Both the position numbers and the translations under genes were made by a program. Below, piece after piece: positions 37,550 through 40,377 of a stretch of DNA of 64,000 nt; position 1 is the first letter of the stretch; the number at the start of each line of letters is the position of its first letter. The DNA comes from Candidatus Saccharibacteria bacterium UBA2951 (lineage in GTDB: Bacteria; Patescibacteriota; Saccharimonadia; Saccharimonadales; Saccharimonadaceae), in the NCBI GenBank assembly GCA_002348615.1, contig DEBR01000003.1:12268-76267 (forward strand), in the 5' to 3' direction. The notes under the pieces were generated by a model that worked only from the letters and a program-made list of their open reading frames with translations, had not been told where the DNA came from and did not search any database.

Positions 37550-38026
37550 ATGAAGCGTAATGGCTTTACCATCGTTGAACTTCTTATCGTCATCTTGGTG
37601 ATATCCATATTGGCGGCCATTACGGTAGTAGCCTATAACGGTGTCCAAAACCAAGCTAATGACAGTGCCGTACAGAACGATTTGAAAAATTTCGGTAAAA
37701 AAATGGAATTGTTTAAGGTCGATAACGAGACATACCCGGCGGCGGGTGACATTACGGCATCACTTGGACTTCGGTTTGCAAAGCAGGCATATGGAACGGA
37801 TTTTCAAGGAAGGAACGTACGGTACTGTATCAATTCATCAACAGGTGAATATGTACTGGTGGCGAATTCAAAATCGGGCAATTACTATTTAGTAAAGCCT
37901 GGAGCGGTCGTCGAGGCCACTGTATCGACATATGGTTGGGGCGTGTGTAACCTGGTAGGGTTGTCATCGACCAACCCGAACCCGAACGGCTATTCGGCCG
38001 GCGTTTGGGCAGCCTGGACGAATTAA
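37550..38026 (+). CDS. type IV pilin-like protein (prepilin N-terminal cleavage/methylation motif)
   Basis: MKRNG|FTIVELLIVILVISILAAITVVAY: class III signal with Gly at -1, Phe at +1, Glu at +5. Two Cys in the C-terminal half. Confidence 0.88.
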   Translation: MKRNGFTIVELLIVILVISILAAITVVAYNGVQNQANDSAVQNDLKNFGKKMELFKVDNETYPAAGDITASLGLRFAKQAYGTDFQGRNVRYCINSSTGEYVLVANSKSGNYYLVKPGAVVEATVSTYGWGVCNLVGLSSTNPNPNGYSAGVWAAWTN

Positions 38027-38052
38027 AAGGGCTCCTGTTGGTGCGCTAACGA

Positions 38053-38061
38053 TGATACAAT
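38053..38061 (+). promoter_or_regulatory. extended -10 box (TGATACAAT) 10 nt upstream of pilin gene 2
   Basis: TGATACAAT at 38053-61, ATG at 38072. Confidence 0.45.
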
Positions 38062-38071
38062 CATAACCATT

Positions 38072-38548
38072 ATGAAAGTCCGTGGCTTTACGATCGTCGA
38101 ACTGCTTCTCGTAATCGTTATTATCGGTATCGTCGCATCAATAACGATAGTTGCTTATAGGGGTACACAGTTTAAAGCGAGCGACGCCGCCGTACAGGTG
38201 GATTTGAAGAACTTTGGCAAACGCGTTGAGTCGTTCAAGATTGAAAACGGCGCGTACCCAACGCCTAGTGATTTTACAGCCTCTCTTGGGCTTAAGTTTT
38301 CAAAAGCTTCGTACGGCGTAGACAGTCAGGGCTACAACGTACGGTATTGCCGGAACACGACCACTGATACATATGTAGTGCTGGCGAATTCAAAATCGGG
38401 CAATTACTTTATGGTGCAAACAGGGGCTATAGTATCCAGTACGGCAGCGACGTACGGATGGGGGGTGTGTCAGCTGGTTGGCGTCGCAACGACCAACCCA
38501 GACCCGAACGGCTTTTCGCCTGGTGGTTGGGCAAGCTGGGCAAACTAA
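38072..38548 (+). CDS. type IV pilin-like protein, paralog of 37550..38026
   Basis: MKVRG|FTIVELLLVIVIIGIVASITIVAY. Same length (158 aa) and colinear with the upstream pilin. Confidence 0.88.
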   Translation: MKVRGFTIVELLLVIVIIGIVASITIVAYRGTQFKASDAAVQVDLKNFGKRVESFKIENGAYPTPSDFTASLGLKFSKASYGVDSQGYNVRYCRNTTTDTYVVLANSKSGNYFMVQTGAIVSSTAATYGWGVCQLVGVATTNPDPNGFSPGGWASWAN

Positions 38549-38560
38549 GGGAATATTCCT

Positions 38561-39214
38561 CTATTGTCTGCAGCCCGCGATTGAGGCGACGTTTATGTAC
38601 GCCTTAGCGGTGGAAAGCTCGTCTGAATCTTCGGACAATTCACTGCTACTGTCGATAGCGACAGGCTTGATGATCTGAATTGCTGACTGGTCAACGCCAT
38701 TCTTGACAAGCAGGTCATTCAGCACTTGAGTCCGTTTGGTCGCGGCGTCCACGGTGTCTTTTTGAGTCGCGTCGCTGCTGACCGTCACCACGACGGAACG
38801 TTTAGAGGCATATGACTGATAAAACGTACCGATTTTTTTCGCTAATGACTCAGCATTTTCTTTGACGTCTGTGGCGTAATCGGAAGTGCCGTTTTTGAAA
38901 CCAAACGACTCAGTATAGAACGACTGTGGCGACAACTGGTCGTCTGCTTCGTTGCCCGTGAGCACCTTGTAATCGTCTTTGGTCAGGCACGCCGGTGCAC
39001 TAGAGAACGGATTAATTCCAAGAGCAGACAATGTTCCGGTCGTCGCTACACAAACAAACAGTACTACCAGCGCGCCAATAAGTAGTCGCTTTTTAGGGTT
39101 CGGTCCAGTAGGTTGTTCTGCCGCAAGCGGTGTTCCAGCGTCAATCGTATTAAACCAGTCCTTAACATCGGGGTCACTCGGTGAAGGTTGGTTGTTGAAC
39201 GGTGGCATGTCCAT
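38561..39214 (-). CDS. single-TM protein with a divergent OmpA-like (peptidoglycan-binding) C-terminal domain
   Basis: TM LLIGALVVLFVCVATTGTL. FGFKNGTSDY...VVVTVSSDAT...KRTQVLNDLLVKNGVDQSAIQI follows the OmpA_C pattern. GGAG 9 nt upstream of the ATG at 39214. Confidence 0.5.
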   Translation of the reverse strand: MDMPPFNNQPSPSDPDVKDWFNTIDAGTPLAAEQPTGPNPKKRLLIGALVVLFVCVATTGTLSALGINPFSSAPACLTKDDYKVLTGNEADDQLSPQSFYTESFGFKNGTSDYATDVKENAESLAKKIGTFYQSYASKRSVVVTVSSDATQKDTVDAATKRTQVLNDLLVKNGVDQSAIQIIKPVAIDSSSELSEDSDELSTAKAYINVASIAGCRQ

Positions 39215-39218
39215 GGCC

Positions 39219-40319
39219 CTAAGCTCCAAACTTGTTCTTTAATTTAGTTATGTCGCCAGACGTCAGACCGATGCTTTTCAGATAGTTAAGGACGGAGCCG
39301 TGCCTGCTTCGGGCAGCTTGCACGCCGTTCGTTAACCATTCCTTTTTGACGACGCCGACGCCTTGGTCGTTGCTTAGTAAGTATTCCCGCATGACCTGCT
39401 GGTCACTGGCGCCATTCGCGTACATGATCATGGCGACCATCCAACCGGTACGGTCTTTGCCTGCGACGCAGTGGATATGTACCGTAGCAGGGGCGTTGGC
39501 TGCCGTTTTAAGAGCCCTTGCGAGCTGAGAACGCCGCGTAGGATCAGTAACCATAGGCGTGGTGTCAAGGATACCTTCAATCGGAATACTGACGTTCTTG
39601 GCGCCATCGATCGCTTTGTCAGGTGCAGATGGCGGAACTCGCAGGTCGATGATGGTTGCTTTTTTGCCCAAAAGCTTCGCCATTTGCTCGGCACCTTTGG
39701 CAGTCAATTTGCTTAGCTGCGCGGAACGGTAGAGTGTATTTGATTTGAGGACATTGCTCGATGCGGATGCGTCGCGCAGGTTATTGACCGATTTGATCTG
39801 GTCGGGGTTAACCGTGCCGCCTGGTGTGTCGTCCGGTCCACTGCCGGTCGGACCGCTTCCGTCTCCCGTACCAGTTGGAATATGCAACGTCGAATCGACG
39901 GTATTCGTTTTACTTGCAAAGCTGTAGCTGCGTTCAAACACACCGCCCGGCACGATAAAATTCAATCCTGCCCACATAAGCAGGAACGCCACTAACCCGA
40001 TTACGACATTCGTAATGATGCTTTTTGCCTTATTCAACTGGTCGGCTTTGTCTTCGGCGGTCGTCCAAAGAATCGAGGCATAGACGATACCAAGTACGGC
40101 AAGAACCCCGACGCCCGCCGTCATGATATTGATCGCAATAAGAAGGATCGCCCAAATGCCGTTCGTGTCATTGCCACATTCAATGATCACCGTTTCGTTC
40201 TTGTCACAAGTCGCCGCTTGGGCGGTGGCAGGGCTAATAATGCCTAACGCGAGCACTCCGAACAACGCGAGCGCTATGAGCGCCGGACCGAATCGTTTGC
40301 GGGGAAGCTTATTTTGCAT
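39219..40319 (-). CDS. fusion protein: signal peptide + two-TM VirB2/TrbC-like pilin module + PtpB-type (Y_phosphatase3) CX5R phosphatase domain
   Basis: Signal peptide ending in ATAQA. Cys pair CDKNETVIIEC. Helices IWAILLIAINIMTAGVGVLAVLGIVYASILW and VVIGLVAFLLMWAGLNFIV. Gly/Pro linker. NLRDAS..LYRSAQL..IIDLR and P-loop HCVAGKDRTG. Confidence 0.75.
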   Translation of the reverse strand: MQNKLPRKRFGPALIALALFGVLALGIISPATAQAATCDKNETVIIECGNDTNGIWAILLIAINIMTAGVGVLAVLGIVYASILWTTAEDKADQLNKAKSIITNVVIGLVAFLLMWAGLNFIVPGGVFERSYSFASKTNTVDSTLHIPTGTGDGSGPTGSGPDDTPGGTVNPDQIKSVNNLRDASASSNVLKSNTLYRSAQLSKLTAKGAEQMAKLLGKKATIIDLRVPPSAPDKAIDGAKNVSIPIEGILDTTPMVTDPTRRSQLARALKTAANAPATVHIHCVAGKDRTGWMVAMIMYANGASDQQVMREYLLSNDQGVGVVKKEWLTNGVQAARSRHGSVLNYLKSIGLTSGDITKLKNKFGA

Positions 40320-40377
40320 GTTTGTATCAACCTAGTCGATTAGCTTGATAATAGATGAGCAGGCGTCAGATGTAAAG

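Follow-up and report, generated by a model that had tools for sequence, protein, structure and literature searches.

The gene under study, which encodes a VirB2-like pilin module joined to an MptpB-type phosphatase, is located between recF and tsf-rpsB in the window (the whole 64,000-nt stretch of DNA analysed). It is followed by a partner gene, of which the ATG at position 39214 is separated from the stop codon of the fusion by 4 nt. The features of both genes are listed in Table 1. About 34 full-length orthologues of the fusion, with 43–100% identity, were found in independent assemblies and the synteny is conserved, so the fusion gene is real and not a product of chance. Fusion and partner are conserved as a pair at loci L002, L008, L009 and L010 and at seven GTDB loci. 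For the promoter-like site upstream of the fusion gene the position alone is suggestive, since such sites are no more numerous here than expected by chance.

The large ORFs of the window have housekeeping functions (PriA, RecJ, IleRS, FtsA, FtsZ, LytR, HtrA, RF, SecA, FtsX, aaRSs and M16 peptidases). Neither a gene of a type IV secretion system (T4SS) nor a second copy of the module was found in the 64-kb window. As all its large ORFs are housekeeping genes, it was rejected that the fusion locus is part of a T4SS island.

Table 1. Position, strand and supporting evidence of the features at the fusion locus (positions in the window).
Feature	Position	Strand	Evidence
Promoter-like site TTTACA-17-TATTAT, in the 58-bp gap between recF and the fusion gene	40348..40376	-	10/12 matches
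Fusion gene, 366-aa modular VirB2-like pilin with MptpB-type phosphatase	39219..40319	-	ORF call, Pfam, orthologues, AF2
Sec-type signal peptide, residues 1–35, predicted cleavage AQA↓A	40215..40319	-	sequence, hydropathy
Extracytoplasmic N-segment (ATCDKNETVIIECGNDTN) with conserved Cys pair C38/C48	40161..40214	-	module alignment
Pilin-like helical hairpin, residues 54–128, ending in conserved PGGVF	39936..40160	-	AF2, PF18895, homology to T4SS-locus pilin
Disordered Gly/Ser/Thr/Pro/Asp linker, residues 129–170	39810..39935	-	AF2 pLDDT below 50
MptpB-like (ALP / Y_phosphatase3) catalytic domain, residues 171–366	39222..39809	-	PF13350, 1ywf matches, AF2
P-loop HCVAGKDRTG, residues 283–292, nucleophile Cys284	39444..39473	-	62-homologue alignment, ALP signature
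Shine-Dalgarno GGAG of the partner gene	39224..39227	-	sequence
Partner gene, 217 aa, cytoplasmic N-tail (WF motif), one TM, OmpA-like ectodomain, Cys76...Cys215	38561..39214	-	sequence, AF2, Foldseek
Partner TM segment, residues 44–66	39017..39085	-	hydropathy, sequence
Partner OmpA-like fold, residues 98–217	38564..38923	-	AF2, Foldseek
Two tandem type IV pilin genes, 158 aa each (37550–38026 and 38072–38548), 62% identical, outside the conserved cassette	37550..38548	+	N_methyl matches

The earlier note had read from the fusion protein a signal peptide ending in ATAQA, a Cys pair and two hydrophobic helices separated by a TTAEDKADQLNKAKS loop, and all of these are present; nothing that it claims on structure was contradicted by the analysis. 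The n-region has four positive charges and is followed by a hydrophobic core and the motif ATAQA↓ATC. Three hydrophobic segments were located by hydropathy (residues 9–36, 52–88 and 97–128). Cysteines occur at residues 38 and 48, the latter being the corrected position of the second Cys of the pair, with Cys284 as the sole further one; across the module alignment the second Cys of the pair is invariant and the first nearly so. The AlphaFold model (AF2) gave the layout of the fusion as a hairpin (helix 54–87, loop 88–91 and helix 92–122, pLDDT 81–92), a disordered linker and a folded phosphatase domain. The linker, earlier described as a Gly/Pro stretch and here found to be made up of Gly, Pro, Ser and Thr, has about 42 residues and a negative net charge.

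Residues 175–364 match PF13350 with 107.6 bits (E = 1.3e-30, cut-off 22.2), covering positions 3–238 of the 240 in the profile. MptpB (1ywf) was matched in sequence (phmmer 3.4e-11) and in fold (Foldseek E 3.8e-11, TM(target) 0.67), the C. difficile PTP (8dhi/8dhj) in fold at about 1e-9, and the pLDDT of the catalytic domain is above 94. The motifs NLRDAS, LYRSAQL, IIDLR and HCVAGKDRTG all occur in the fusion, and the P-loop residues H, C, G, K, D, R, T and G are invariant in 62/62 homologues. The ALP signature is HCXXGKDR[TA]G, with Cys as nucleophile, Lys, the catalytic Asp and Arg, and for the enzymes MptpB, Lmo1800, Lmo1935 and LM1, which carry it, both phosphoinositide and protein phosphatase activity have been shown (PMC3091653). 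The assignment of a complete Y_phosphatase3 domain of the PtpB family was upheld by the PF13350 match, by 1ywf in sequence and fold and by the intact P-loop. As judged from its residues, this MptpB-type atypical lipid/protein phosphatase domain is catalytically intact.

For the partner, the GGAG, the 4-nt gap and the TM protein described before were all seen in the sequence; of the divergent OmpA-like peptidoglycan-binding domain also claimed, the fold stood, but the candidate peptidoglycan-binding Asp is not conserved. The ectodomain was modelled with a pLDDT of 84–96 over most of the domain from a shallow alignment of seven sequences, and the top 50 Foldseek matches were OmpA/Pal/MotB-C domains in 50/50 cases (E 1.4e-5 to 1.5e-3, TM(target) mostly about 0.5–0.7). 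No OmpA match was obtained for the window protein by sequence (Pfam, NCBIfam and PDB profile), but PF00691 matches two of the seven orthologues (best 3.5e-5) and the partner at L008 has a weak precomputed OmpA match. The word-indexed homologue search returned seven close relatives only, and distant partners were located through synteny. Arg161 is invariant and distant orthologues have Gly or Ala in place of the candidate Asp148, both positions being set by motif spacing only. The partner resembles the OmpA-like/Pal/MotB C-terminal domains (5u1h, 3td5, 1oap) in its predicted fold and in an Arg at the expected position, and differs from them in the candidate D148, unconserved in orthologues, the lack of a Pfam match for the window protein, the N-terminal anchoring by one TM in a monoderm and the conserved Cys76-Cys215 pair.

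The two type IV pilin genes beyond the partner carry the N_methyl motif and are convergent with the fusion-partner operon. They are present as the earlier note described, but incidental: at the equivalent locus no type IV pilins were found in L002, L008, L009, L010 and L011, and relatives have an SGNH gene or nothing at this position. A functional link between the fusion and these genes was rejected, as it is not conserved at the locus in relatives; their insertion beside the operon is lineage-specific.

Relationship of the pilin module to T4SS-locus pilins

The module has the layout of a signal peptide and two long hydrophobic helices with a short polar loop, as found by hydropathy and AF2. 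Against PF18895, the whole fusion protein scored 19.9 bits (E 7.6e-4) and the isolated module 24.5 bits (E 3e-5), with a Pfam gathering cut-off of 26.6. The profile matches 22/24 close homologues of the module at E<=0.01 (best 1.5e-9). In related Saccharibacteria (L001), a seven-gene array of PF18895 pilins adjoins VirB4/TraC-like/PrgI/TrbL_3 genes, and the first pilin of this array shares 72% identity (E 3e-43) with the fusion module; matches to the other seven pilins at L001 range from E 3e-8 to 3e-3. The earlier identification as a T4SS pilin is supported by this identity and by the homologues, although the fusion itself remains below the cut-off.

Kinship with canonical VirB2/TrbC was not supported. 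The fusion protein gave no match to PF04956 (TrbC/VirB2) in the Pfam search; one of 24 module members matches it (E 0.0068), as do some array pilins weakly. Two query profiles, the narrow module alignment A1 and a 426-sequence pilin profile, were compared by hhalign with real VirB2/TrbC sequences from Agrobacterium, Sinorhizobium and Acetobacter plasmids, fetched with a VirB2 sequence as probe. The probabilities of 1.5% and 0.5% did not exceed that of a reversed control, and homology to the Agrobacterium-type VirB2 is therefore not demonstrable by sequence and was rejected as profile-detectable. The likeness to canonical VirB2/TrbC (PF04956; Agrobacterium VirB2) consists of the signal peptide, the two hydrophobic helices, the short polar loop and the paralogues in T4SS clusters, whereas significant profile-profile similarity is lacking and the fusion's host is a monoderm. 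A PDB profile search with the module gave only spurious matches to designed Kelch repeats, which were discarded, and in the Foldseek search with the full fusion model the phosphatase domain dominated the matches.

By homology, the hairpin is a paralogue of the pilin that comes first in the Saccharibacterial T4SS pilin array and is its best-conserved member. Since the gene sits between recF and tsf-rpsB, at a locus kept in the orthologues, the fusion is classified as a paralogue of the PF18895 family and not as an array member. Among the best 80 loci with the module, 64 adjoin T4SS genes (VirB4/TraC-like/PrgI/TrbL_3), and the pilins there stop 0–4 aa past the module. The conserved recF...tsf-rpsB locus accounts for seven of these 80, all seven with a C-terminal enzyme (extension of 236–254 aa) and a partner gene. 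An apparent C-terminal extension at L089 was a run of masked N and was rejected as a fusion.

The C-terminal passengers of 33 long module members were Y_phosphatase3 (15), EEP (5), GDPD (4), SGNH (3) and a beta-helix (1), and at L028 a GDPD takes the place of the phosphatase at the same locus. The tsf-locus fusion P0025 is 74% identical over 230 aa to a complete T4SS-locus pilin, P0077, recorded on the same contig (962,722 bp). The identity runs up to ...PGGVFS, beyond which P0025 continues with a linker and then the phosphatase; the T4SS-locus pilin is kept in full, Cys-rich N-domain included. The sequence PGGVF-[DNE]-R is conserved at the junction of module and linker in many fusions, and stand-alone pilins end exactly there. 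Related phosphatases also occur on a plain single TM anchor (P0039/P0040).

In four of five genomes the nearest neighbour of the fusion module is that genome's own T4SS pilin, with 74–83% module identity within a genome against about 55–58% across genomes. The modules of two fusions that carry different enzymes within a single genome are 86% identical, and the enzyme fusions are not monophyletic in the module comparison. Recent gene conversion was rejected as the source of this similarity because synonymous sites are saturated between fusion modules and same-genome T4SS pilins, and identical residues use the same codon as often in same-genome pairs (0.31–0.40) as in cross-genome pairs (0.33–0.47). 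Old gene conversion or module replacement, instead of co-assembly, could account for it.

Proposed display of the phosphatase and alternative explanations

The protein is probably a modular VirB2-like pilin that displays a phosphoesterase outside the cell, probably in association with T4SS pilins. Its N-terminus would be exported and the predicted signal peptide cleaved, and the hairpin would span the membrane, its loop on the cytoplasmic side and the phosphatase therefore facing outwards. The earlier note had likewise placed the phosphatase outside the cell, in agreement with the three hydrophobic segments and the positively charged n-region. Because the hairpin stays matched to the T4SS-locus pilin of the same genome, we propose with moderate confidence that the fusion would join the T4SS pilins, by association or co-assembly, as a minor, passenger-bearing subunit. 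Its place would be the membrane pilin pool and perhaps the pilus itself or its end; incorporation would be limited to minor or terminal positions because a 22-kDa globular passenger on each subunit would crowd a VirB2-type filament. The phosphoesterase would thereby be placed at the epibiont-host interface, and the putatively co-transcribed OmpA-like partner probably anchors or orders the complex within the cell wall. Since GDPD, EEP or SGNH hydrolases are found in place of the phosphatase on this carrier at this locus, one may speculate that it acts on phospho-monoesters of lipids of the host envelope (e.g. phosphoinositide-type head groups) or on phosphoproteins. No PF13350 entry is listed for S. 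epibionticum ML1, and hence not every such epibiont has the fusion. Counterpoints are noted: the gene stands among housekeeping genes, away from the T4SS loci, and a Cys-dependent phosphatase outside the cell is open to oxidation.

A possible but less probable alternative is that the pilin-derived hairpin has been co-opted as a mere two-TM tether of an exo-phosphatase at the cell surface, with no role in a T4SS or pilus. The tether would have the length needed to span the wall, to which the OmpA-like partner would be bound as a companion. The absence of T4SS genes from the window, the location away from T4SS loci, next to a cell-envelope partner and among conserved housekeeping genes, and the bulk of the passenger agree with such a role, and the single-TM phosphatases P0039/P0040 indicate that anchoring alone can suffice. 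A mere anchor should drift, yet hairpin, Cys pair and terminal PGGVF stay 50–99% identical, and the hairpin is closest to the genome's own T4SS-locus pilin in four of five genomes despite the saturated synonymous sites. The retention of an entire T4SS-locus pilin with its Cys-rich N-domain in P0025, and the fact that the T4SS-locus pilin of this subfamily itself bears an N-terminal passenger, also speak against a simple tether.

It is improbable that the T4SS uses the pilin module as a handle for recognition or export, by which the phosphatase would be released (e.g. by cleavage after PGGVF) or injected and would alter phospho-signalling or phosphoinositide-type lipid intermediates of the host. 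MptpB is a secreted effector (PMC3091653), the T4SS of Saccharibacteria was proposed to be a protein exporter and has neither relaxase nor coupling proteins in S. epibionticum, the one species tested (PMC10633639), and the conserved PGGVF-[DNE]-R at the point where stand-alone pilins end would suit such a release. Against this, there is no sign of cleavage, a Sec signal peptide with two TM helices is not known as a signal of T4SS substrates, and the conserved, wall-associated nature of the partner points to a complex that stays in place. That an uncleaved signal peptide or inverted topology turns the phosphatase towards the cell's own cytoplasmic proteins is very improbable: Cys-based phosphatases usually work in reducing compartments, but the three hydrophobic segments after a +4 n-region, the acidic flanks on the outside segments, the conserved Cys pair in the first exported segment, the paralogues with one N-terminal TM that also put the domain outside and the OmpA-like partner ectodomain with its own conserved Cys pair all argue for the opposite orientation.

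Comparison with known systems and significance

Southlakia epibionticum has an essential series of VirB2-like pilins, SEML1_0014-0019 (Wang 2023, PMC10633639), and arrays of 2–11 pilin genes near virB4 are reported for Patescibacteria (Quinonero-Coronel 2025, PMC12102498). The signal peptide and two-helix hairpin of these PF18895 pilins are shared by the fusion, the module of which is homologous to the first array pilin. The fusion differs in 240 aa of linker and enzyme past the end point of the pilins, in being encoded away from the T4SS locus and in its dedicated OmpA-like partner. No enzyme-bearing PF18895 pilin is described in the available text of the two reports (PMC10633639, PMC12102498). 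The statement of the earlier note that it knew of no described enzyme-bearing VirB2-type pilin is in line with our finding no published description in the literature. The architecture is hidden in databases because the fusions are mostly labelled tyrosine phosphatases, with a precomputed PF18895 match in only 3 of about 34 orthologues.

A parallel in design is found in modular type IV pilins such as PilB (pilin and vWA) and PilC (pilin and lectin) of Streptococcus sanguinis (Raynaud 2021, PMC8179133). Both designs have a small pilin module with a function grafted on through a linker, many different passengers and a proposed display at the tip or as minor subunit. The filament superfamilies are unrelated: modular type IV pilins have a class III signal peptide, an N_methyl motif and a prepilin peptidase, whereas the fusion is a Sec-type VirB2-like hairpin with hydrolases, and not mainly binding modules, as passengers. 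No match to PF07963/TIGR02532 was found in the fusion (Pfam, NCBIfam), which has a Sec-type AXA signal instead. The fusion would work like a modular type IV pilin but is no member of that superfamily.

With the MptpB/ALP family (1ywf, 2oz5; PMC3091653) and the C. difficile PTP (8dhi/8dhj), the catalytic domain shares the fold, the P-loop, the catalytic Asp and the substrate-binding Lys. It differs in being covalently joined to a pilin hairpin and, at about 197 aa versus 276, falls some 80 residues short of MptpB. ALPs were described as proteins with only a phosphatase domain, without a membrane-targeting module (Beresford 2010, PMC3091653), and the fusion would supply the module that this family of MptpB-like lipid phosphatases was noted to lack.

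Saccharibacteria depend on the T4SS and its pilins for epibiotic growth, the T4SS pilins being essential in S. epibionticum (PMC10633639). T4SS-pilin paralogues that bear phosphoesterases or esterases predicted to face outwards, and that stay matched in sequence to the cognate pilin, lead to the testable hypothesis that the pilin system is a scaffold for enzymes at the host interface; if true, the 'modular pilin' principle of type IV pili would extend to VirB2-like pilins. A wider and more tentative idea, which we hold to be doubtful as yet, is that the essential VirB2-like pilus of Saccharibacteria is a heteropolymeric 'enzymatic pilus' that brings hydrolases of phospholipid or teichoic-acid head groups to the envelope of the actinobacterial host. 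Passengers would then be interchangeable on a conserved subfamily of carrier pilins (at the T4SS locus, a Cys-rich N-domain; elsewhere, MptpB-type lipid phosphatase, GDPD, EEP or SGNH), which would co-assemble with cognate pilins. If true, the enzymatic pilus would allow a lipid-auxotrophic epibiont to harvest or remodel lipids of the host envelope, e.g. phosphatidylinositol-phosphate-type intermediates.

Composition of the fusion protein and its phosphatase

The elements described in the earlier note for the 366-aa fusion protein were all present on reading the window sequence. An n-region, MQNKLPRKRFGP, with a charge of +4 is followed by a hydrophobic core and an AQA↓A cleavage motif, and the only Cys residues are Cys38, Cys48 and Cys284. 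Two hydrophobic stretches (52-88 and 97-128) are separated by TTAEDKADQLNKAKS, and a linker rich in Gly, Ser, Thr, Pro and Asp leads to the phosphatase motifs NLRDAS, LYRSAQL, IIDLR and HCVAGKDRTG. In the AF2 model, a helical hairpin (54-87 and 92-122, pLDDT 81-92) precedes a disordered linker (129-166) and a folded phosphatase (170-366, pLDDT >94). The gene is real and not an artefact; about 34 full-length orthologues of 43-100% identity were found in independent assemblies, and the surrounding 6.6 kb was seen in several metagenomes at 100% identity to the window. A promoter-like site is located within the 58-bp gap between recF and the fusion gene. Directly after PGGVF, the end of the pilin-like module, [DNE]-R is kept in many fusions including that of the window, and could be a processing site or a mere boundary motif.

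Features of the fusion locus, the rest of the window and related loci (window positions unless a locus is named)
Feature	Position	Strand
Fusion gene, 366 aa	39219..40319	-
Module-linker junction of fusion (PGGVF followed by [DNE]-R), residues 124-131	39927-39950	-
Partner gene, 217 aa (ATG at 39214, 4 bases past fusion stop, GGAG ahead)	38561..39214	-
Type IV pilin gene 1, 158 aa	37550-38026	+
Type IV pilin gene 2, 158 aa	38072-38548	+
ORF, 139 aa	37075-37494	+
Ig-like protein, 377 aa	21953-23086	+
Acidic protein, 563 aa	383-2074	+
P0039 phosphatase neighbourhood	L094 6001-7272 and 8458-9945	
T4SS pilin array	L001 10001-15098	
T4SS pilin array	L095 9001-14436	

The proposed complete PtpB-type domain was upheld by three methods in agreement: PF13350 (Y_phosphatase3) matched at 1.3e-30 over almost the full profile, phmmer against PDB retrieved M. 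tuberculosis PtpB (3.4e-11) and also a C. difficile PTP, and Foldseek retrieved 1ywf (3.8e-11). Across 62 homologous domains, N180, R182, D183, R198, S199 and H283-C-x-x-G-K-D-R-T-G292 are invariant, with D225 conserved in 61 and R227 in 60. The P-loop corresponds exactly to HCXXGKDR[TA]G, the defining signature of the MptpB-like ‘atypical lipid phosphatases’, a family with members that act on phosphoinositides and phospho-peptides and one noted to be without any membrane-targeting module (PMC3091653). As predicted from these residues, the domain should be active. In another lineage, a phosphatase of the same clade (P0039) has a single TM anchor and a long Ser/Thr-rich linker; a gene for a 495-aa EEP protein follows two genes (~1.2 kb) downstream of it, and a heliorhodopsin gene lies ~3.5 kb upstream.

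Relation of the module to type IV secretion pilins

The T4SS-pilin assignment stood for the module family, with 22 of 24 module sequences matching PF18895 (T4SS_pilin; best 1.5e-9), whereas the window protein taken singly stayed below the Pfam cut-off of 26.6 bits, with 19.9 bits as a whole and 24.5 bits as isolated module. The module, ~95 residues with the Cys pair, both helices and PGGVF at its end, is common to about 50 short proteins of 55-72% identity, in which it forms the extreme C-terminus with only 0-3 residues after PGGVF. One of these, P0058, is the product of the leading gene in a PF18895 array of seven, divergent from two TrbL_3 (VirB6-like) genes, PrgI (VirB3-like), a TraC-like gene and a VirB4-like ATPase. 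P0058 and the window module share 72% identity (E 3e-43), and the remaining pilins of the array are also significantly similar to the module. In a search of 1.84 billion proteins, a module profile retrieved 13,468 cluster representatives. Among the best 80 module loci of species-representative genomes, nearly all labelled Saccharibacteria or Saccharimonadia, 64 adjoin T4SS genes and encode proteins that stop at the module; seven sit in a recF...tsf-rpsB neighbourhood, all with a C-terminal extension of 236-254 aa. UBA2952, the closest species representative (~86% nucleotide identity to the window), encodes a fusion at L011 as well as a pilin in a T4SS locus, L013.

The module is thus a true paralogue of the VirB2-like pilins of Patescibacteria. 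These pilins have been described before (PMC12102498, PMC10633639, PMC12857230); their genes form arrays near virB4, and they are essential in Southlakia epibionticum. Comparison of the module profile with canonical Agrobacterium-type VirB2 by hhalign gave probabilities of 1.5% and 0.5%, no sequence homology being found, so the label ‘VirB2-like’ is founded on architecture, on gene context and on structure-based calls in the literature.

The pilin arrays of two distant genomes (L001 and L095) share one fixed layout: a pilin with a Cys-rich N-extension, six short pilins, an HSP20 gene, a 223-aa gene and a further pilin, the HSP20 gene and this last pilin both being on the opposite strand. Across genomes the first pilin is conserved at ~59%, far above the 22-41% of the other pilins relative to it. 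The 476-aa protein P0098 is built of four or more PF18895 hairpin modules in tandem, with near-identical repeat units (...YITSQGDDKKA...) and has a precomputed PF19607 match; this poly-pilin architecture cannot be a conventional pilus subunit.

The choice between anchor and pilin, set by the earlier note as its own refutation test, was addressed over the 77-residue helical core. The nearest neighbour of the fusion was the T4SS-locus pilin of its own genome in four of five genomes, with identities of 83% (L011/L013), 81% (L019/L022), 74% (L026/L030) and 83% (L087/L082); the exception was L017/L033 (55%). Cross-genome identities average 58% between fusions and 55% between fusion and pilin, the fusions do not form a clade, and two fusions of one genome carrying different enzymes are 86% identical. 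Had one old duplication been followed by independent drift, a first rank among 64 would not be expected for the same-genome pilin; the chance of four such ranks in five is roughly estimated at the order of 1e-7.

That the hairpin was kept like the cognate T4SS pilin argues for a shared interaction, either co-assembly or a common machine. Incorporation into the pilus has several points against it: the fusion gene sits outside the T4SS locus, the partner is of wall type, the passenger is bulky and the related phosphatases P0039 and P0040 manage with a plain single TM segment. A free-drifting membrane anchor is argued against by the same likeness, whatever the cause of the matching. Identical residues share the same codon in 31-40% of cases in same-genome pairs, as in cross-genome pairs, and recent gene conversion was therefore ruled out as its source, leaving co-evolution at the protein level or, alternatively, conversion or replacement further back in time.

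Passengers, partner and gene neighbourhood

The hydrolase passengers are interchangeable. Of the 33 members of the family that have a long C-extension, 15 carry Y_phosphatase3, five EEP, four GDPD, three SGNH and one a pectate-lyase-like beta-helix, the remainder having no family assignment. At the same chromosomal locus, L028 has GDPD in place of the phosphatase. Composites are found in P0010 (module-SGNH-phosphatase) and P0036 (module-EEP-phosphatase, confirmed by Pfam), and P0017 and P0024 have an insert of 230-280 aa, of no assigned family, ahead of the phosphatase. The clearest case is the fusion P0025, encoded at the tsf locus beside a partner with an OmpA match. Over 230 residues it shares 74% identity with the T4SS-locus pilin P0077 in its full length, and the two proteins were reported on one contig of 962,722 bp. 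The alignment spans the signal peptide, Cys-rich N-domain and hairpin up to ...PGGVFS, beyond which P0025 adds a Gly linker and the phosphatase; thus a passenger is already present at the N-terminus of the T4SS-locus pilin of this subfamily, and the fusions have another at the C-terminus. Two further proteins, one of 395 aa at L047 and P0056 of 391 aa, join the module to a ~277-aa domain without Pfam match, which from NxxE...NTHF...TADFN looks like a putative divergent endonuclease/exonuclease/phosphatase fold.

The claimed GGAG Shine-Dalgarno and 4-nt gap before the partner gene are present. In the partner, a cytoplasmic tail containing an invariant WF leads through a single TM segment to an ectodomain in which Cys76 and Cys215 are invariant. 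Pfam, NCBIfam and PDB profile searches gave no identity for the window protein. With the AF2 ectodomain (pLDDT 84-96, shallow alignment), the top 50 Foldseek hits were all OmpA/Pal/MotB-C domains (best 1.4e-5), and two of seven orthologues match PF00691, in support of the suggested divergent OmpA-like fold. Arg161 is invariant among orthologues, but they do not conserve the Asp that peptidoglycan binding would call for; wall binding is thus putative. The two genes form a conserved cassette, kept in orthologues as far as 39-54% identity and present at L002, L008, L009 and L010 and in the GTDB loci L011, L017, L019, L026, L028, L075 and L087.

No T4SS component was found in the 64-kb window, the genes of which are housekeeping. 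The two type IV pilins noted beyond the partner gene were confirmed as tandem genes, 62% identical in product and convergent with the fusion-partner operon. In the close relatives L002 and L011 their slot holds a gene for a secreted or anchored SGNH/GDSL hydrolase, and in L008, L009 and L010 other unassigned ORFs and no type IV pilin gene; the adjacency is therefore incidental. The SGNH family of the slot is also fused in P0010, between module and phosphatase, and in P0037, where it follows the module directly; a functional link between the hydrolases is hinted at by these fusions. The 139-aa ORF, without Pfam or NCBIfam match, is kept beside tsf in L002 and L004; in that place L008 has a 182-aa ORF, likewise without Pfam match. 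Elsewhere in the window, a very acidic 563-aa protein without Pfam match combines two hydrophobic segments rich in Gly and Ala with an Asp-rich stretch, DHDGIADQFDHDRDGDGVPNRFDD, of calcium-binding-like character. A bacterial Ig-like domain (Big_13 / Big_6) marks a protein of 377 aa as a possible surface adhesin.

Novelty and proposed role

Every part of the fusion belongs to a known family. The design resembles that of modular type IV pilins (PMC8179133), but with a VirB2-like pilin class unrelated to type IV pilins. Full-text searches covering PF18895 and, for Saccharibacteria, VirB2, T4SS, pilins, effectors and tyrosine phosphatase retrieved no description of enzyme-fused VirB2-like pilins, as the earlier note had supposed. 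A Patescibacterial T4SS survey, in the portion consulted, mentions fusion solely for VirB3-VirB4 (PMC12102498), and the annotation table of S. epibionticum ML1 lists no PF13350 protein.

In the proposed mechanism, the fusion would be exported by Sec and adopt an N-out, loop-in, C-out topology, placing the enzyme outside the cell. It may associate with T4SS pilins as a minor subunit bearing the passenger, in a complex organised by the OmpA-like partner. Because of the atypical lipid phosphatase signature and the GDPD, EEP and SGNH alternatives, the substrates might, speculatively, be lipids or polymers of the host envelope, at their phospho-ester head groups.
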